Shown here piece after piece: positions 14,720-56,012 of a stretch of DNA of 64,000 nt. This DNA comes from Candidatus Doudnabacteria bacterium (GTDB lineage: Bacteria; Patescibacteriota; Doudnabacteria; UBA920): contig JADZEH010000024.1 in assembly GCA_020850635.1 (NCBI GenBank), positions 8,617-72,616 of the forward strand, read 5' to 3'. Position numbers and translations under genes: made by a program. Numbering within the stretch: the first letter of the stretch is position 1; the number at the start of each line of letters is the position of its first letter. Under the pieces are notes generated by a model that had not been told where the DNA came from, searched no databases, and worked only from the letters and a program-made list of their open reading frames with translations.

Positions 14720-15742
14720 TTATTGAATACAAATATAGTTCCAGGTTTCGGCTCCGCCAGTTGTAGAGGCAACGAAATTTAAGGTAAGAGCTGTGGTAGA
14801 CGAAGTTACATAAACCTTACCGGCATCTACTTGGCCAGTGTCCGTGGCTGGGCTTACAGTGCATACCGGAGCCGATGCGTAAGCGGTTTGGAAAGTAACA
14901 ACTAAAGTCCCTGCTCCAGCGCCGACAGTTGCTGAAATTTTTCCTTTAGTATCGCTACTTCCTGAACTCAAAGTGGCACCGCTATAACCAGCACCTGTAA
15001 CGCTGGGTGTTGGGGCTGTTGTCTGTGATGAAATCAAGTGAGAAGTCGCTGGTCCAAGTGTAACGTTAGTACCCACAGTTACACCACTTGCCGCGATAGT
15101 AACAACGGCCGTGGTTGGTCTAGCTGCAAAGCCACCCGTAAAACCAATTCCGATAGTACTAGCACTGTGTGGGTAAATTGCACCAACATTACCTGGGGTA
15201 TTCAGAGTATAACCAATTCCGGATCCTCCATAGAGAATAATTCCACCCGTACCTGCTCCATTTGCTTCTGACCCAATTGCCAGAGTACCATTACTACTCG
15301 CGCTTGCTACTGAACTTGCCGACAGTCGCATTATGGTGTCTGGGCTAACTGGATTTGCTCCTGGAGGTGACCACAGAAAATCGAATGATGGACTACCAGC
15401 AAAATCACCCATTGAAATATTAGTCCCTAACACACTCGTATCATCTAAATTGTACGAATTATAGGTAGCTGTTGGGGACATATTAAAAGTAAACTGTGAC
15501 AACCTTATCAAATCTGAAAGCACAGAAGAGGTGGCCATATGAGCATACATACCAGTTTCAGCAATTGGGATCCTTAAAGTTCCCGTTAAAGTAGTGTCCC
15601 CGGTGATTGCAACTGATGTCCCTTGCAAAGCAATTAAGCCGTCCGATGTTATCGTAGTCGAGCCAACTGTTAAAGCCGCTTGTGCGGATTTTGCACTAGT
15701 AAATAATAGTGCAATAAAAATTAAAAAATAGAGTTTTTTCAT
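14720..15742 (-). CDS. Secreted Gly/Thr/Ser-rich repeat protein (paralog 1; candidate surface/adhesin beta-solenoid)
   Basis: Signal peptide ...SAKSAQA. Conserved AALTVG...ITSDGL block shared with the 30749-31600 product. Low-complexity G/T/S/A repeats. C-terminal Cys pair (VCTVSP...NYICIQ). Confidence 0.6.
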   Translation of the reverse strand: MKKLYFLIFIALLFTSAKSAQAALTVGSTTITSDGLIALQGTSVAITGDTTLTGTLRIPIAETGMYAHMATSSVLSDLIRLSQFTFNMSPTATYNSYNLDDTSVLGTNISMGDFAGSPSFDFLWSPPGANPVSPDTIMRLSASSVASASSNGTLAIGSEANGAGTGGIILYGGSGIGYTLNTPGNVGAIYPHSASTIGIGFTGGFAARPTTAVVTIAASGVTVGTNVTLGPATSHLISSQTTAPTPSVTGAGYSGATLSSGSSDTKGKISATVGAGAGTLVVTFQTAYASAPVCTVSPATDTGQVDAGKVYVTSSTTALTLNFVASTTGGAETWNYICIQ

Positions 15743-20294: not shown

Positions 20295-20669
20295 ATGCCT
20301 GACGAAGCCCCGGACTTGTCGGTGATCAAGATGCCAACTGACGACGAGAAGAAGTACTTCCTGTACAGTAAGCTCAACACATACATGCGTCGCGGCGAGG
20401 AACAAGGTCTTGCTTACAGGGCTCCTGAGGCCATGAGCAGGGACGAGATCGACACTCACTACAAGACCTACATTCTCACTCACTTGATTGTGAATGATGA
20501 GATCCTCCCAGACCAAATGTCGGCCGCACTTGCAGGCCCTTATGGCTTGGAAACCGATATATTCTACAATGCCTGGATAGTCATCGATGACTATGCCACA
20601 ACAGGAGGTGAAAAGGCTCGCGCCGGCAAATCCTGGAATCTCCCGCCTGAGGAGGACCCCCCGAACTGA
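20295..20669 (+). CDS. Hypothetical acidic protein, compositionally foreign (~52% GC)
   Basis: ATG at 20295 is preceded by aagaggaggag (the ORF track starts earlier at 20256). 124 aa, MPDEAPDLSVIKMPTDDEKKYFLYSKL... Terminator immediately downstream. Antisense to murB/murC. Confidence 0.55.
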   Translation: MPDEAPDLSVIKMPTDDEKKYFLYSKLNTYMRRGEEQGLAYRAPEAMSRDEIDTHYKTYILTHLIVNDEILPDQMSAALAGPYGLETDIFYNAWIVIDDYATTGGEKARAGKSWNLPPEEDPPN

Positions 20670-30292: not shown

Positions 30293-30295
30293 ATA

Positions 30296-30621
30296 CTTTT
30301 AGCAAACTCGTAAGCCGAATTCTGTTTCTAAATAATCATCTATCTTGTCCTGCTGTTACCACCAGGATCATGCTGCCTACCAAATTTGGCATTGCACTCA
30401 GGTAAGGATTTGGCCGTTTCACCCTCTACATTACTGCAAAGGTTCACCCCGAAGGGTGCTCTTGGCTTGCGCCGCCAGCGTCACTGTTCGCACCTCTAAA
30501 ATTACTTTCGACGGGAATTACCCGCTACCCTTGTTAATGACTCTATAGTGGCCATCAACTAAGTGTTCGGACTTTCCTCTCTTAGCCTTGCGGTAAGAGC
30601 GATTATTCGATTTGCTAAAAG
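30296..30621 (-). ncRNA. rnpB: RNase P RNA (bacterial type; M1-like ribozyme)
   Basis: The minus strand carries GAGGAAAGUCCGAACAC (P4 5-prime strand), GGGUGAAACGG, ACAGAAUUCGGCUUAC (P4 3-prime strand). Terminal P1 pairing is CUUUUAGCAAAU / GUUUGCUAAAAG. No ORF. About 326 nt. Confidence 0.8.
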
Positions 30622-30748: not shown

Positions 30749-31600
30749 TTAAGGACTGGCATCAGCCCAAGCTGCGCCGGTACAAATCCACAAAATAGCG
30801 GCATCAGTCTCAACGTAAATTCTTCCAGCTTCTCCAGCTGCGTCACAATCGGTACCGGTAGGGGTAGCTGTTCCTGAAGGGATTTCTAGTAAACCAGCAA
30901 TGTTTGTAGTAGAGGTTGCGTGACCTATGTTAACTACATCTGTGGAAGGAACACCCTGAGTAGCAACAATGTTAACGGTTCTTGTACCAGCTAAAGCAGC
31001 TGCATTAGAAATGTTAACAGTTGTATTTCCACTACCCAGTGTATTGTTTGCAATGTTAAGAGTAGTTGTTGTGCCAGCGGCATTTACACCATTGGCAATA
31101 TTTACGGTTTGAATGTTTGTGCCACTTAAGTTAGCAGAACCAATATTAATAATATTTGAAGTACCGTTTGATTGACCAATAGTAATGGTACCTGTCTGAG
31201 CTGTTCCACCGATAGTGATTGTACCAGTAGTCATCGCGGCACCAATAGCAACGGATCCAGCGGTTTGAGTATTACCGATAGCGATAACGTTAGCTCCGGT
31301 TCCACCAACGCTAATGGTTTTAACCACAGCGGCACCAGTACCAATGTTAATTGTCTGTGCGGCTGTTCCAGTTCCCAAGCCAATGGTACCAGTTTGTCCC
31401 GTACCACCTAAAGTCAAAGTTCCAGCAACTGCAGCAGAACCAAGAACGATATCAGAACCTGCAGCAGCTTCCATTGATAAAGCACCATCGCTAGTAACAG
31501 CTAGGGCACCTACAGTCAAAGCTGCTCCGGCAGAACCCGGAACCATCAACGCGATAATTGCCAAACTCGCGGTGGCAATTTGCATTCCTTTTAGTTTCAT
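30749..31600 (-). CDS. Secreted Gly/Thr-rich beta-solenoid-like repeat protein (paralog 2)
   Basis: Signal peptide ...GSAGA. AALTVGALAVTSDGAL block shared with paralog 1. About 14-aa periodic T-x-T-I-x-I-G / N-I-x-N repeats. C-terminal CD...GEAGRIYVETD...LWICTGAAW. Confidence 0.6.
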   Translation of the reverse strand: MKLKGMQIATASLAIIALMVPGSAGAALTVGALAVTSDGALSMEAAAGSDIVLGSAAVAGTLTLGGTGQTGTIGLGTGTAAQTINIGTGAAVVKTISVGGTGANVIAIGNTQTAGSVAIGAAMTTGTITIGGTAQTGTITIGQSNGTSNIINIGSANLSGTNIQTVNIANGVNAAGTTTTLNIANNTLGSGNTTVNISNAAALAGTRTVNIVATQGVPSTDVVNIGHATSTTNIAGLLEIPSGTATPTGTDCDAAGEAGRIYVETDAAILWICTGAAWADASP

Positions 31601-41398: not shown

Positions 41399-41932
41399 AT
41401 GACTTTTGACCGCAGAGATAACGAACCATATCTCAAGCTCAACGACCAACTATACCAACGAACGTTAAGCGGAAGTATGGCAACAAACCATGCCCTGTTT
41501 CACTCCATCGTCATAGAGGCGATGAAGATGTTCGCAGACGTGCCCGGATGGGAGGAAAGAACTGGAGCGTACTGGGCAATTGCGGGCATCTACACCGAAG
41601 AGTCTTACGCTGCGGGCTACGCGGGTAACAACGGTTACTCAGCAGGTGAACAATTTCGATTGCGATGCAAAGAAAAGCTGGCACGTTTGGCGTCGCACCG
41701 ACATCACTTGAGCAGTGCCGAAAGCCGGAACCCTGATCGGCTCCAATTCGGAGGAGCGATCCGTACCAACTGGTACATGCTCTCGATGTCGGGACTACCC
41801 GAAGACGGCGACGAAATCTGCGTGCTCAAATTCGCTGTGGAGCGCTCCTGGCTCACCGACGACCAGGCAAAGCAGATCGCCGAGATCAGCGACAACTGGC
41901 TTTGGAAAGAGTTCTCTGAATTGCTCTTCTAG
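41399..41932 (+). CDS. Hypothetical protein, compositionally foreign (~53% GC), inserted within a tRNA cluster
   Basis: ATG at 41399 after a strong SD. The ORF-track start at 41321 is a TTG that coincides with the -35 box. 177 aa, MTFDRRDNEPYLKLNDQLYQRTLSGS... No recognised domain. Confidence 0.55.
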   Translation: MTFDRRDNEPYLKLNDQLYQRTLSGSMATNHALFHSIVIEAMKMFADVPGWEERTGAYWAIAGIYTEESYAAGYAGNNGYSAGEQFRLRCKEKLARLASHRHHLSSAESRNPDRLQFGGAIRTNWYMLSMSGLPEDGDEICVLKFAVERSWLTDDQAKQIAEISDNWLWKEFSELLF

Positions 41933-42039: not shown

Positions 42040-42125
42040 TGGTGGGCCGAGAAGGATTCGAACCTTCGAAGGCAAAAGCCAGCAGATTTACAGTCTGCCC
42101 CCGTTGACCGCTTGGGTATCGACCC
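42040..42125 (-). tRNA. tRNA-Tyr (anticodon GUA), class II with long variable arm
   Basis: Reverse complement GGGUCGAUACCCAAGCGGUCAACGGGGGCAGACUGUAAAUCUGC...GGUUCGAAUCC...CCCACCA. 86 nt. Confidence 0.9.
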
Positions 42126-42201
42126 TGGAGCCGTTTTGCGGGATCGAACCGCAGACCTTCTCCTTACCATGGAGATGCTCTACCAACTGAGCTAAAACGG
42201 C
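42126..42201 (-). tRNA. tRNA-Thr (anticodon GGU)
   Basis: Reverse complement GCCGUUUUAGCUCAGUUGGUAGAGCAUCUCCAUGGUAAGGAGA...GGUUCGAUCCC...AAACGGCUCCA. Immediately adjacent to tRNA-Tyr. Confidence 0.9.
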
Positions 42202-45975: not shown

Positions 45976-46341
45976 ATGGCCGAAAAACTTTCACTTGAAC
46001 AGCACGAGCAAAACGACGAAGAGTTCCAAGAGTGGTACAACGCGGCTAAGGACACCTTAGCTGACCATTACGGTGTGACAGACCTTACCCCGATAGAAGC
46101 AACTCGACTGCAGCAGATTCTTCGAGAGGTGCTGGAGGATAATGCTTACTATATACGGAAGCGTGACTCAGAAAGTGAAAAAAGAGCTGATCATAATATT
46201 GTCATGCCTAATTCTGAAGCTATTGCGCGATGGTTTCTGGATTACAACATTAACATAAAAACTGATCCCGACGTAGAAAATAACATGGGGCGGTTCAAAG
46301 AAAATCTACGCTTTCTCCGCGAACAAGCACATAACCCATGA
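45976..46341 (+). CDS. Hypothetical protein wedged between prfA and prmC
   Basis: 121 aa. Starts 2 nt after the prfA stop, and its stop overlaps the prmC start (ATGA). Acidic, no recognised motif. Confidence 0.45.
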   Translation: MAEKLSLEQHEQNDEEFQEWYNAAKDTLADHYGVTDLTPIEATRLQQILREVLEDNAYYIRKRDSESEKRADHNIVMPNSEAIARWFLDYNINIKTDPDVENNMGRFKENLRFLREQAHNP

Positions 46342-47150
46342 CCATACAGGAGACCTTAAGTCTTTATTCAGATGCTGAATCTGATTTATTACTCTCTTTC
46401 GTACTAAAAAAGTCGAGAGATTTTTTGTATATCCATCCAGAAAAAAAGCTTACAACAAAACAACTAAAAGCTTTTAAGTCTCTAGTTGCACGACGCAAAA
46501 AAGGTGAGCCTGTAGCTTACCTATTGAGATATAAAGATTTCTTTGGATTGAAATTCAAAGTTACCAAAGATACGTTAGTTCCTCGTCCTGAAACCGAATG
46601 GGTTGTGGATCATATCCTCAATCAAAAACTTTCAAACAACACTTCAATTCTCGATTTAGGAACCGGCTCTGGATGTATCGCGATCAGCATAAAAAAGAAC
46701 ACTCCTAAACTTTCTGTAACTGCAAGCGATGTTTCGAAAAAAGCTTTACTTGTAGCAAAACAAAACGCCCGATCCCACAAAACTAAAATTAACTTTGTTC
46801 ACTCAAACTTACTTAGTAACTTATCAAACAAACATTTTGATATTATTATCGCTAACCTTCCTTACGGCTGGAATGTTTGGAAAAATAATAGCTCTATCGA
46901 AGCAAAAAGTTTAAAGTTTGAACCACAATTAGCACTATTTACCAAAGAAAACGGCTTATACCTCTATCGCCTTTTACTGCAACAAGTTTCAAAACTCAAA
47001 AAACAACCTAGCGTAATCTATTTAGAATTCGATCCACGACAAAAAACTAAACTCGCTAAACTTATAAAAACAATACTACCTAAAGCCAAAACTATTTTTC
47101 ATAAAGATTTAGCTGGGTTGTGGCGATACGTAGAAATAAAACGAGGCTAG
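46338..47150 (+). CDS. prmC: Release factor glutamine methyltransferase PrmC (HemK)
   Basis: SAM-binding LDLGTGSGCIAISI and IANLPYGW (NPPY-type) motif. Confidence 0.85.
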   Translation: MTIQETLSLYSDAESDLLLSFVLKKSRDFLYIHPEKKLTTKQLKAFKSLVARRKKGEPVAYLLRYKDFFGLKFKVTKDTLVPRPETEWVVDHILNQKLSNNTSILDLGTGSGCIAISIKKNTPKLSVTASDVSKKALLVAKQNARSHKTKINFVHSNLLSNLSNKHFDIIIANLPYGWNVWKNNSSIEAKSLKFEPQLALFTKENGLYLYRLLLQQVSKLKKQPSVIYLEFDPRQKTKLAKLIKTILPKAKTIFHKDLAGLWRYVEIKRG

Positions 47151-47602
47151 CCAAAATGCGCTAACCTCATGCTCTGACCCGGGTAACACTCGTCAAGTCC
47201 CCGAAGCATGAGCCCAGTCCTTGGATGAGCGGGGTCCATTGAGATTCTATGACGGACCACAGCCGCCTTTTTCTCGTCCTGTCCAAGATAGTGATACATC
47301 ACGTTCGATACCTGAATGATCATCTTAACTATTTCTCGCTTCCCTTCTTGGGGAAAGCGCGAGATAACAGCCTTAATGCTTCGCTCGCTCGGTATCATCT
47401 TCAACGCAAAAGCTGCATAGGTAATCGGCGCGGTCCTCCCTTCGCTCCCGATCACATAGTACGCTTTGTTCCGCCCTCGCAAGGTTATCTGATATTCGAA
47501 CCTCACGGACACGCCAGACCTGACAAACTCCGAAAAACCATGCAGGTCTCCAGACTCCTTCTGACACAGCTGAGAAAACACCGAGACCACCCTTCTTGCC
47601 AT
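47147..47602 (-). CDS. Hypothetical protein, compositionally foreign (~52% GC)
   Basis: ATG at 47600-47602 (minus) preceded by GGTAGGAGGT SD. The ORF track extends to 47635. 151 aa, MARRVVSVFSQLCQKESGDL... Putative promoter on minus at 47630-47658 (TTGACA, then TATGCT-like -10). Its stop overlaps the convergent prmC stop within GCTAGC. Confidence 0.5.
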   Translation of the reverse strand: MARRVVSVFSQLCQKESGDLHGFSEFVRSGVSVRFEYQITLRGRNKAYYVIGSEGRTAPITYAAFALKMIPSERSIKAVISRFPQEGKREIVKMIIQVSNVMYHYLGQDEKKAAVVRHRISMDPAHPRTGLMLRGLDECYPGQSMRLAHFG

Positions 47603-47670
47603 CACACACCTCCTACCCATTGATGACATTAGCATACTCGAACATCAAAGTTTGTCAAAATCTACACAAC

Positions 47671-47696
47671 AAAAAACCCGCCACATCGGCGGGTTT
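47671..47696 (-). terminator. Intrinsic terminator after rplY (cccgcc/ggcggg)
   Basis: On the minus strand, hairpin followed by T6. Confidence 0.6.
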
Positions 47697-47702
47697 AAAA
47701 TG

Positions 47703-48377
47703 TTATTCTTTTTTCTCAGCGTCTTTATTTTCAGCACCTTCTTCAGCTGGCTTGTCTTCAGCCGCGCCTTCAACAGCACTAATATCTTCAACAACAGGTT
47801 CAGCGAGTTCAGCTTCGATATCACGAGGAGCTTGTGTGTTAGCCACAGTTTCTTCGGGATCAGATGTTACAACAACACCCTTTGGAAGCTTGATGTCCTT
47901 AACCAAAATAGAATCATCAAAAGTTTTCAATACCGAAATATCAATTTCAAGACTGTGAGGCAAATCGCCTGGCAAACATTCAACTTCAATTTCGTCGATA
48001 ACCTTAAGTAAAGTTCCACCTAAGATCTTGACTGCATCAGACTCACCTACGAATTCCAAAGGAACTGTAGCGGTAAGTTTTTCAGTCATACTAACTTCGT
48101 AGAAATCAACGTGAGTAATGGTACCAGTTAAGTAATGCTTCTGAATGGCTTGGATCAAAACGTTATGGGTTTTGCCATCATCTGTTTTAAGTTCAACAAT
48201 CGTACTTTCACCAGCTTTGCGGAAAAGTTTTTCAAACTCACCCTGAGCGACAGTTACGTGTACGTTGGGAATGTTATGTCCATACAAAACCGCTGGAATA
48301 GAACCCTGACCGCGCACGTTGTTTGCGGTAGCAGCCTGAACCTCTCGCGCTTTTGCTTGTAATTGCAGTTTTTCCAT
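47703..48377 (-). CDS. rplY: 50S ribosomal protein L25 / general stress protein Ctc
   Basis: 224 aa. L25 beta-barrel N-domain plus acidic C-terminal extension typical of Ctc forms. Confidence 0.9.
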   Translation of the reverse strand: MEKLQLQAKAREVQAATANNVRGQGSIPAVLYGHNIPNVHVTVAQGEFEKLFRKAGESTIVELKTDDGKTHNVLIQAIQKHYLTGTITHVDFYEVSMTEKLTATVPLEFVGESDAVKILGGTLLKVIDEIEVECLPGDLPHSLEIDISVLKTFDDSILVKDIKLPKGVVVTSDPEETVANTQAPRDIEAELAEPVVEDISAVEGAAEDKPAEEGAENKDAEKKE

Positions 48378-48446
48378 TGCTATCTGAGTAAATAATATCT
48401 GCTAAAGTATACCAAATACTGATGTTTTTGGCAAGTCCTATATCCA

Positions 48447-48476
48447 AAAAGCCCCCGCATCTGCGGGGGCTTTTAA
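48447..48476. terminator. Bidirectional hairpin terminator (agcccccgca/gcgggggctt)
   Basis: 9-bp GC stem with A-run and T-run flanks, located after the 120-aa gene on the minus strand. Confidence 0.55.
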
Positions 48477-48484
48477 AAGTTTAT

Positions 48485-48847
48485 CTATATCTTCCCTATG
48501 GCTTTAACTAAGTTGCCATCGAACTTCTTGAGAGTTTTGTGAATATTGATAATGTCGTCAGTATTAATTGGGTTGTATTTGCGGAACTTTATTGTGTCTT
48601 TACTGGTGAGATCGGTGATCATTCCAACACTAACAATATCAGGGCCAGTAATATCAATATTACACATCACCGAACTTTTACACTTTTCACAGTCGGCGTG
48701 AATCATAACGCGAGCGTCATTGGTCTGTTCATCATAAATAGTTTCGATCACTTGGATCCGTTCAAAATTATATTTAAACTGACAAATCTGACAGCGTAAA
48801 ACCACGCCGAGCCACGCAATCACTTTTTTAAAATCAATGTTTTTCAT
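48485..48847 (-). CDS. Hypothetical zinc-ribbon-like protein
   Basis: 120 aa with CQICQ...CEKCK (two CxxC pairs). Confidence 0.45.
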   Translation of the reverse strand: MKNIDFKKVIAWLGVVLRCQICQFKYNFERIQVIETIYDEQTNDARVMIHADCEKCKSSVMCNIDITGPDIVSVGMITDLTSKDTIKFRKYNPINTDDIINIHKTLKKFDGNLVKAIGKI

Positions 48848-54466: not shown

Positions 54467-54487
54467 AGCTTGTGGTATACTGAAGGC

Positions 54488-54742
54488 AATTTGCACTAAA
54501 GAGAATTGGCTTTCCCCTGGTCCAGCTAGTTACCCTCGCCTTTAGGAACATGTTTGAGACAATCGGCCCCACATACTGGAGAGTAGTTACTCCAGACATT
54601 CCCCACCTAAGAGCCAATTCTCACAATCGGTCAGTAGTGAATACCAGTCCAACAAGGAGGACTATCAAGCGCCTAGGCGCTTACCCCAAGTAGCACACCC
54701 AGTCACAGCGTTCCCGCGCAATGGTGTTGCTTGGGTTTTTTT
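54488..54742 (+). ncRNA. Candidate structured small RNA (~255 nt) with extended -10 promoter and intrinsic terminator; family unknown
   Basis: TGgTATACT extended -10 at 54473-54481. No ORF of 60 aa or more on this strand. Long-range stem GAGAAUUGGCU (54502-54512) pairs with AGCCAAUUCUC (54610-54620). Internal hairpins (cuggag/cuccag; GCGCCUAGGCGC). Terminal stem cccaag/cttggg followed by T7. Confidence 0.35.
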
Positions 54743-54744
54743 AT

Positions 54745-54773
54745 TTGACAAAAAGGGGTAATAGTCCTAGAAT
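54745..54773 (+). promoter_or_regulatory. Consensus-like sigma70 promoter TTGACA-17-TAGAAT
   Basis: -35 at 54745-54750, -10 at 54768-54773. GGAGAAAG Shine-Dalgarno before the ATG at 54855. Confidence 0.45.
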
Positions 54774-54854: not shown

Positions 54855-55346
54855 ATGAAGAGTCTCCTTTCGATGCTGTCCGTTGCAATCGTCTTCGCTT
54901 TCGTGTCACCTCTGGTGGCCGACCTCGAGGCGAAAGCGAGTTCGACCAACAAATCGCCGCCGAGCATTACCATCACGGGTCAGCGCATCCATTACGGATC
55001 TGACGATGTGAACACGATGCCGATGGCCGACCAAACGCCGCTCGAGACGATCACCACGTCCGCCAGCATGGACAAGGTTTTCGCTCCACCGGCGATCAAC
55101 AGTTCGAAGATGACCGGGTCCACCGACGGGAAATCGGTGAACGATCCGGCCGCCACGCTCGCGGGAACCGACCCGTACATTGTTCTGTACATCAACGTCG
55201 CCATTCAACGGACGATGATACCGGCAATGGCAGGATGCAACGAGGCGATTTTGCGCGCACCCCGCAAGTCGGCACGTTCGGGTCCCGAGATCCAACGAGC
55301 CTGGCGCCCGTTCGCCGGCCTCGATCTCAACTCCTCGAAGCCCTGA
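54855..55346 (+). CDS. Small secreted hypothetical protein, high GC (~58%)
   Basis: ATG at 54855 (the ORF track opens at 54810). Signal peptide MKSLLSMLSVAIVFAFVSPLVADLEAKA. 163 aa. The antisense ORFs here are high-GC artefacts. Confidence 0.5.
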   Translation: MKSLLSMLSVAIVFAFVSPLVADLEAKASSTNKSPPSITITGQRIHYGSDDVNTMPMADQTPLETITTSASMDKVFAPPAINSSKMTGSTDGKSVNDPAATLAGTDPYIVLYINVAIQRTMIPAMAGCNEAILRAPRKSARSGPEIQRAWRPFAGLDLNSSKP

Positions 55347-55496: not shown

Positions 55497-56012
55497 ATGA
55501 ACTCACTCCGCCATGTTTTGCTTTATGCAATTGTCATCCTGTTCATCTCGGTTATTGCCGCTATCCTGTACTGGCTATTCGGCATTCAACCGATCAACAC
55601 AGTCTACGGAACTATTGTAGTTTTCGTAGTTTGTTTTCTCTGGCTCTCTTGGGAAAATTTTGTGATTTCACCAAGAAGAATTCAAATAATCCTGCAAATC
55701 TTAGCCATGGATGGCGGAGAAATGACAACCTTAGAAATCATCGAGCAGGGCAAGGGCGAACTAAGCAGGGCTGCTATCCACTCCGAGTTAAATTACCTGA
55801 TTGAGAAAGATCTTGTGAGTAAACGTATCGAGGAACGAACCACACCATATATTCCGCTCAGCTACTTCAAGATCACACCCAACGGAAGACGAGAACAACA
55901 CGCCAAGATTACTTCGAAGTTGAGACTTAGCTGGCAACGTACGTGGAGCCAGTCCGGACAGACAATGTCCGGTCTTTTTTTATCCTCAAGATTTTTGACA
56001 CAAACAGTTTGA
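55497..56012 (+). CDS. Membrane-anchored winged-helix (PadR/MarR-like) protein
   Basis: ATG at 55497. Two N-terminal TM helices, then ILQILAMDGGEMTTLEIIE...SELNYLIEKDLVSKRIEE...YFKITPNGRRE resembling PadR-type wHTH. An intrinsic terminator lies inside the last ~20 codons. Confidence 0.5.
   Translation: MNSLRHVLLYAIVILFISVIAAILYWLFGIQPINTVYGTIVVFVVCFLWLSWENFVISPRRIQIILQILAMDGGEMTTLEIIEQGKGELSRAAIHSELNYLIEKDLVSKRIEERTTPYIPLSYFKITPNGRREQHAKITSKLRLSWQRTWSQSGQTMSGLFLSSRFLTQTV
55954..55981 (+). terminator. Intrinsic terminator (ccggaca/tgtccgg, T7) embedded in the 3-prime end of the wHTH ORF
   Basis: 7-bp stem, 5-nt loop, TTTTTTT. Confidence 0.6.

Follow-up and report, generated by a model that had tools for sequence, protein, structure and literature searches.

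The sequence considered here, referred to as the window, is a 64,000 nucleotide stretch of a 41% GC bacterial chromosome from a metagenome-assembled genome (MAG) of Candidatus Doudnabacteria (GCA_020850635.1, contig JADZEH010000024.1), and carries rpsB, tsf, rpmE, prfA, prmC, rplY, ftsW, dnaE, RNase P RNA and tRNA genes. Between rplY and prmC, on the minus strand, lies an open reading frame (ORF) of 151 codons, ORF151. We assign a probability of about 0.7 to the reading that ORF151 is a self-contained accessory gene, comparable to the morons of phages, which occupies a recombination-prone slot and whose alleles are exchanged through conserved flanks. The predicted unit is monocistronic, comprising promoter, Shine-Dalgarno (SD) sequence, the 151-codon ORF and a hairpin terminator, and its substitution pattern is that of a gene under purifying selection. 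Being an ORFan restricted to its lineage and placed in a variable slot, it is of a familiar kind and poses no challenge to current understanding.

Comparisons were made with L003-L005, which belong to the same species, with the sister species L001 (GCA_964407465.1), and with L086, a nearer relative that carries a divergent allele. The components of the unit and its immediate surroundings are as follows.

47147..47602, minus strand: ORF151 coding sequence, 151 amino acids from an ATG behind an SD sequence.
47609..47613, minus strand: SD sequence GGAGG, 6 nt 5' of the ORF151 ATG, within GGTAGGAGGT at 47617-47608.
47631..47658, minus strand: sigma-70-type promoter from a sequence scan, TTGACA-16 nt-TATGCT, with the -35 box at 47658-47653 and the -10 box at 47636-47631.
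47674..47696, minus strand: intrinsic terminator of rplY from a scan, the upstream edge of the ORF151 unit, conserved in L001 and L086.
47131..47170, minus strand: hairpin and T-tract resembling an intrinsic terminator, from a scan, spanning the stop codons and conserved in three alleles.
47145..47152, not assigned to a strand: palindrome GGCTAGCC (8 nt), which holds both convergent Gly-stop codons and forms the 3' arm of the terminator stem.
46338..47150, plus strand: prmC, encoding release-factor glutamine methyltransferase according to its Pfam domains, the convergent neighbour.

The original prediction described a minus-strand ORF of 151 amino acids and about 52% GC, with an SD sequence and a TTGACA-containing promoter, packed between the rplY terminator and the prmC stop codon. 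All of this is confirmed: the peptide that it quoted is contained in ORF151, the signals are placed as listed, and the unit is bounded by the rplY hairpin (47696-47674) and the prmC stop (47148-47150). A longer version of the ORF, of 162 amino acids, would start at 47635; the SD sequence supports the ATG at 47602. The protein is basic, with an isoelectric point (pI) of 10.0 and no evident signal peptide or transmembrane segment.

Promoter-like and terminator-like sites are no more numerous in this region than shuffled sequence would lead one to expect, and it is conservation across the alleles, rather than the scan, that makes these assignments credible. The -35 box, the 16-nt spacing to TAT(G/T)CT, the SD sequence and the terminator hairpin are retained in all three known alleles, while the spacer and leader sequences have diverged. 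The -10 hexamer is TATGCT in L001 and TATTCT in L086; the SD sequence is GGAGG in L001 and a purine-rich GGGGGAAAG in L086. Conservation of the signals amid a diverging spacer and leader is what would be expected of a functional expression ‘socket’.

The unit was originally thought to have no terminator of its own, which is incorrect. A hairpin of 11 pairs at 47170-47141, with a 9-bp core (GAGGTTAGC-8 nt-GCTAGCCTC) followed by the T-tract GTTTTATTT, spans the ORF151 stop codon, the T-tract lying antisense to the final codons of prmC. The L001 hairpin is GAGGCTAGC-8-GCTAGCCTT with a T-tract, and a single change in one arm converts a U.G wobble into a C-G pair; the divergent L086 allele has GGGCTAGC-8-GCTAGCTC and then T6. 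The stop codons of prmC (TAG, 47148-47150) and ORF151 (TAG on the minus strand, 47149-47147) have CTAG in common. Their predicted overlap within GCTAGC holds for the window and for L001, but it is not a conserved feature since in L086 a 10-nt spacer separates two GCTAGC copies. The palindrome therefore belongs to a conserved terminator stem, of which it forms one arm, and is more than a coincidence of two stop codons. On the prmC strand the hairpin is not followed by a T-tract, so that prmC lacks a terminator of its own and prfA-prmC transcripts probably run antisense through ORF151 toward the rplY hairpin. Such read-through may cause the two units to interfere with each other.

The L001 ortholog also has 151 amino acids and shares 77% amino acid and 82% nucleotide identity with ORF151, with no insertions or deletions in 456 nt. 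The differences are distributed 25/16/41 over the three codon positions and correspond to 41.5 changes over 106 synonymous sites as opposed to 40.5 over 347 non-synonymous sites (dN/dS 0.23, Fisher p = 7e-10), with a ratio of approximately 0.2 in each third of the gene. This pattern indicates that ORF151 codes for protein and evolves under purifying selection. Between the two species dS of ORF151 is about 0.56 and dN is 0.127; the latter is 0.147 for prmC and 0.015-0.06 for most neighbours.

In composition ORF151 stands apart from its surroundings. The GC content is 0.52, and 0.61 at third codon positions (GC3), against a mean GC3 of 0.352 (sd 0.041) for 50 backbone genes, a z-score of +6.2; the values for the adjacent prmC and rplY are 0.28 and 0.31. 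The view of ORF151 as a compositionally foreign single-gene unit is thereby upheld, with the qualification that it possesses a terminator in addition to its promoter and SD sequence.

Homologs are scarce. A word-indexed search of 5.8 billion proteins returned only the protein itself and the 77% identical ortholog (P0002). Exhaustive HMMER searching of 1.84 billion cluster representatives added one more, P0003, of 142 amino acids (E = 7e-4), which in pairwise BLASTP is 33% identical to ORF151 over 78 residues (E = 2e-11) with the common core ...RF.Y..T...Y.I...ITYAAF...AV..RF..GK.E.V..I. A profile of the three sequences found no further members. Neither the window nor 110 retrieved loci contain a paralog, and no relatives were present in IMG/VR viral contigs, INPHARED phages or PLSDB plasmids. 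When JGI metagenome contigs were scanned with RplY in search of more alleles, no close relatives came up (the best 57%), and exact look-ups of RplY and the neighbouring 120-residue protein, hyp120, retrieved only contigs that had already been found. The family thus has three known members, all at the rplY/prmC site and all in one genus-level clade. As anticipated, no confident family assignment can be given: Pfam-A, NCBIfam, PHROGs, PADLOC and PDB sequences provided no credible family for any of the three alleles, the best E-values (0.007-0.8) being inconsistent between alleles. AlphaFold2 models from two- and three-sequence alignments were unusable, with pLDDT values of 34 and 49, and no match at E <= 1e-3 was obtained when Foldseek was run against PDB and BFVD. 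A resemblance by eye of YYVIG...ITYAAF to GIY-YIG domains had no Pfam support and was dropped.

Exact sequence matches place the window in this MAG, whose genes bear the locus tags IT410_*, on a contig of 86 kb. Logan/ENA gene calls are the only source of the protein, ORF151 apparently being missing from the GenBank annotation of the MAG. The MCC73565xx accession series has six proteins for seven ORFs between hyp121, a small ORF upstream of prmC described below, and the ORF at 54855.

Identities of alleles and flanks along the locus are given below.

L003-L005, same species, about 97% overall: 47000-48500, including rplY and ORF151, 100% identical; prmC patchy, 86-97%.
L001, sister species: rplY region 87%, ORF151 82% and prmC 76-80% at the nucleotide level.
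L086, nearer relative: rplY 97.5% and prmC 85% at the nucleotide level; RplY 99% and hyp120 100% at the amino acid level.
47142..47648, not assigned to a strand: tract that cannot be aligned with L086 at the DNA level, delimited by blastn breakpoints and reaching from the -10 region to the stop codon; 40-52% identity.

In sliding windows prmC is 86-97% identical to L003/L004 and 81-91% identical to L086, and rplY 94-100%. The L086 allele encodes a protein of pI 5.8 with 33% identity to that of ORF151, and has a GC content of 0.43 and GC3 of 0.48, whereas the L001 allele is of the ORF151 type (77% amino acid identity, GC 0.53). The phylogenies of allele and flanks conflict, in that the distant L001 has the same type of allele and the nearer L086 a deeply divergent one. 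This incongruence, together with the sharp breakpoints, points to exchange of whole alleles via conserved flanks, or else to a long-lived polymorphism, and not to clock-like divergence.

Of the alternatives, the one that survives best, although we consider it unlikely, is that ORF151 is an ordinary, vertically inherited and fast-evolving gene specific to the genus, its GC-richness due to amino acid or mRNA constraint and the L086 allele a very fast-diverged ortholog. Position, promoter, SD sequence and terminator are indeed retained in all three lineages, the divergence of ORF151 from the sister species (82% nucleotide identity) matches that of its flanks (80-87%), and mobility signatures are lacking. 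Vertical descent is however difficult to reconcile with L086, where rplY flanks of 94-100% identity surround an ORF of 40-52%, with abrupt changes at 47142 and 47648. Retention of the ORF151 type in the more distant L001 would still need exchange or ancient polymorphism, and the GC3 value is 6 sd above those of the 50 backbone genes.

The organization of the junction in other genomes bears on the nature of the slot. The nearest genomes by PrfA are MAGs of Doudnabacteria/Patescibacteria, and the block in which rpmE-prfA-prmC converges on rplY-hyp120-ftsW is maintained in about 25 Doudnabacteria-like genomes with PrfA 57-72% identical. All three members of the ORF151 family are downstream of rplY and convergent with prmC. 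In six genomes (L010, L011, L018, L020, L026 and L030) the junction is empty, with prmC and rplY 89-165 bp apart. Many others have a membrane-anchored polysaccharide deacetylase (PF01522) at this position, sometimes with extra genes such as one encoding DUF3048, and two have small TonB_C-like secreted proteins. Approximately 20 more distant Doudnabacteria have prmC and rplY directly adjacent or split by other genes. At the order level, then, the slot is flexible and ORF151 is one among several genes that may fill it. Adjacency of rplY and prmC in relatives, put forward originally as a check, is found in several of the distant genomes, but three lineages carry the ORF151 family between the two genes. 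Conserved orthologs at the site, named at the same time as evidence that would refute the original prediction, do exist within the genus, in the form of the L001 ortholog and the divergent allele of a third lineage; ORF151 is therefore not a private recent insertion.

The prfA/prmC junction is a second variable slot beside that of ORF151. It holds hyp121, a 121-residue ORF (45976-46341, plus strand, GC 0.44, GC3 0.43) with start and stop codons that abut prfA and prmC. It is absent in L001, L003-L005 and L086, where the prfA-prmC gap is 7 bp. The presence of hyp121 goes with a replaced N-terminus of prmC (46338-46418) and patchy identity of 86-97% in the 3' end of prfA and in prmC. In L014 the corresponding position is taken by an ORF of 30% identity, and the hyp121 cluster at 90% identity has five members.

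What kind of locus is this? By the definition quoted in PMC4378225, a phage moron consists of one ORF equipped with a promoter and terminator of its own, has a deviant composition and lies between two genes that adjoin each other in related genomes. ORF151 conforms in being a single ORF with a predicted sigma-70-type promoter and a hairpin/T-tract terminator, in lying between genes that adjoin in the six empty-junction genomes, and in having a composition unlike that of prmC and rplY. A recombinase site is lacking in both cases. The two differ in that ORF151 is placed in a bacterial chromosome among housekeeping genes and has no PHROG, viral-contig or phage match, in that orthologs keep its position in at least three lineages, and in that it exists as deeply divergent alleles rather than in plain presence or absence.

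Two further classes of locus offer parallels. Hotspots of horizontal gene transfer, or ‘islets’, are flanked by core genes and contain lineage-specific ORFans. The ORF151 slot resembles them in its flanks, conserved across the order, in its variable content, and in holding a gene of atypical composition with no homologs beyond a narrow clade. In most bacteria the ORFans have a higher AT content than the host genome, whereas ORF151 is GC-richer than its 41% GC host, and its slot is distinguished by holding just one gene, the expression signals of which are precisely conserved. Hypervariable allelic loci, such as those for immunity, defence or surface antigens, are maintained by recombination in conserved flanks. 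Sharp cassette edges, incongruent phylogenies of allele and flank, and raised divergence of the linked prmC are shared with such loci; the small number of ORF151 alleles, the lack of any sign of positive selection (dN/dS about 0.2 throughout) and the absence of a partner toxin or known defence domain are not.

We envisage that ORF151 acts as a chromosomal analogue of a phage moron, a plug-in gene of foreign composition that would be expressed independently of its neighbours. Divergent alleles could be swapped by homologous recombination in the flanks, with the -35 box and rplY terminator on one side and, on the other, prmC, which shows additional, linked divergence. The GC-rich allele would most likely have been imported from a GC-richer relative or mobile pool before the split of the window species from its sister, and may not yet have been ameliorated. 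Because of the fast evolution of the protein, the deep allelic divergence and the variability between strains, our guess is a role of the conflict type, in phage defence, anti-defence or immunity.

Several observations weigh against the moron-like, exchanged gene that we favour and against a role in conflict. No strain of the same species with an empty site was found, nor a mobility gene or flanking repeat, so that composition and taxonomic restriction are all that point to transfer. The high GC3 in both species after a dS of about 0.56 could reflect a constraint intrinsic to the allele. Only three alleles are known, and the uniform dN/dS along the gene shows no positively selected patch. Charge is not conserved (pI 10.0 and 5.8), and no shared binding property can therefore be argued. 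The structural models are unreliable at the pLDDT values given and brought no Foldseek match. PADLOC recorded no defence-family match, and there is no partner gene.

A selfish free-standing element, of the homing-endonuclease type, is distinctly less probable than vertical descent. It would drive co-conversion of its flanks and so explain the patchy divergence of prmC. The presence between conserved genes of a lone intergenic gene that has expression signals of its own is compatible with this, as are the raised, mosaic divergence in prmC and the 3' end of prfA and the basic protein (pI 10). Yet searches of Pfam for HNH, GIY-YIG, LAGLIDADG and PD-(D/E)XK domains gave no match even at E <= 10, the divergent L086 allele is acidic, no polymorphism of empty and occupied sites was seen within the species, and the mosaicism of prmC goes in part with another insertion, that of hyp121.

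That the locus is not a protein gene at all, but a structured RNA or a chance ORF, possibly with the plus-strand ORF of 124 amino acids (47249-47623) as the real gene, is suggested by the frequency with which GC-rich islands in AT-rich genomes are RNA genes, by the long ORFs on both strands and by the apparent absence of the protein from the NCBI annotation with a gap in accession numbering, and is effectively refuted by the substitution pattern over codon positions, the dN/dS of 0.23 on the minus strand as opposed to 0.83 on the plus strand, the lack of insertions or deletions at 82% identity, and a 33% identical allele that retains frame, length and the ITYAAF core motif. With the antisense dN/dS at 0.83, the 124-residue ORF was rejected as a gene. 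The structured-RNA possibility was likewise discarded: Rfam 15 gave nothing at gathering score and no match inside ORF151 even at E <= 10, its sub-threshold matches falling on the rplY terminator only, and the folding of both strands is unremarkable (z-scores -1.4 and -1.0).

Three other mechanisms were considered and set aside. A type II toxin-antitoxin module does not fit a single ORF between promoter and terminator with a neutral antisense ORF (omega 0.83). A target of a diversity-generating retroelement is at odds with divergence that is gene-wide and with the finding that no part of the island is repeated elsewhere in the 64-kb window. An integron cassette was rejected on anatomy.

In practical terms the work is of modest value, in that a probably unannotated ORF of a Doudnabacteria MAG is recognized as a real gene with the appearance of being expressed. 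The slot provides a small example of how reduced genomes of the Candidate Phyla Radiation (CPR) keep flexible, single-gene slots between essential genes. A socket of -35 box and terminator hairpin with swappable, divergent alleles may interest those who study how accessory genomes change and how conflicts with hosts or phages play out in symbiotic, ultra-small bacteria that have not been cultured.

Three other GC-rich units occur in the window.

20295-20669, plus strand: GC-rich unit with TTGACA-type promoter, GGAGG SD sequence and hairpin/T-run terminator.
41399-41932, plus strand: GC-rich unit with TTGACA-type promoter, GGAGG SD sequence and hairpin/T-run terminator.
54855-55346, plus strand: GC-rich unit with an N-terminal signal peptide in the product, and with TTGACA-type promoter, GGAGG SD sequence and hairpin/T-run terminator.

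These units are monocistronic with GC3 values of 0.63-0.75. The annotation lists their products as hypothetical proteins, which remain singletons when clustered at 90% and have no Pfam match and no relatives in IMG/VR contigs. The common design attributed to the high-GC units is evident, since promoter, GGAGG SD sequence and high GC3 recur in each. In leave-one-out comparisons of codon likelihood all four units, ORF151 included, prefer a model pooled from the other high-GC units (+0.09 to +0.24 nats per codon, ORF151 being the weakest), whilst the 50 backbone genes without exception prefer the backbone model (-0.03 to -0.38 nats per codon). In third-position composition the four differ significantly from one another (chi2 32.3, df 9, p = 1.8e-4), with ORF151 a G-rich outlier at a G3/(G3+C3) of 0.66 compared to 0.41-0.48 for the other three. 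No protein or DNA similarity was detected among the four, which leaves shared GC-richness as the single argument for a shared origin. The four agree in being single-gene units of foreign composition; a common source is unproven, given the differing third positions and the lack of sequence similarity.

A bolder proposal would make the four units a distinct class of ‘chromosomal moron’ in CPR, plug-in single-gene cassettes drawn from an unsampled GC-richer pool, be it a host, a phage or a sister lineage, into fixed intergenic sockets with conserved expression signals. The family of ORF151 and its 142-residue relative would in that case be a novel hypervariable protein of conflict, in defence or immunity, with shuffling of its alleles among strains. 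We regard this as doubtful, a shade more so than simple vertical descent of ORF151.

Some observations concern the surroundings of these units. Synteny with L001 (8340-8590, against 42040-42201 of the window) ends directly after tRNA-Thr(GGT), which is followed by purB in L001. In the window tRNA-Thr(GGT) is followed by tRNA-Tyr, the unit at 41399-41932 and another tRNA-Thr, and purB does not occur. Beyond the unit at 54855-55346 there is an ORF of 171 residues (55497-56012, plus strand) with two N-terminal transmembrane segments, weak winged-helix (BlaI/PadR/MarR-like) matches and a codon usage between that of the backbone and the GC-rich units. Before the unit, separating it from dnaE, are about 265 nt of non-coding sequence (54484-54748, plus strand) with an extended -10-like TGGTATACT upstream, a strong hairpin with T7 at the end, and a 13-bp long-range helix GAGAAUUGGCUUU/AGAGCCAAUUCUC. 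The folding z-score is -1.8, there is no Rfam match, and this segment may be a small RNA.

Elsewhere in the window, the bacterial class A RNase P RNA (30295-30618, minus strand) scores 108.6 in Rfam against a gathering threshold of 100, with several helices missing or divergent and one insertion. Such loss or divergence of helices is typical of the reduced RNase P RNA of CPR bacteria. Two minus-strand ORFs with signal peptides, 14720-15742 and 30749-31600, have similar N-termini (…AALTVG…TSDG…). Their GC content is unusually high at second codon positions (0.59-0.60) and low at third positions, which explains two local peaks in GC. Their products, rich in Ala, Gly and Thr, are probably paralogs that are secreted or located at the surface.

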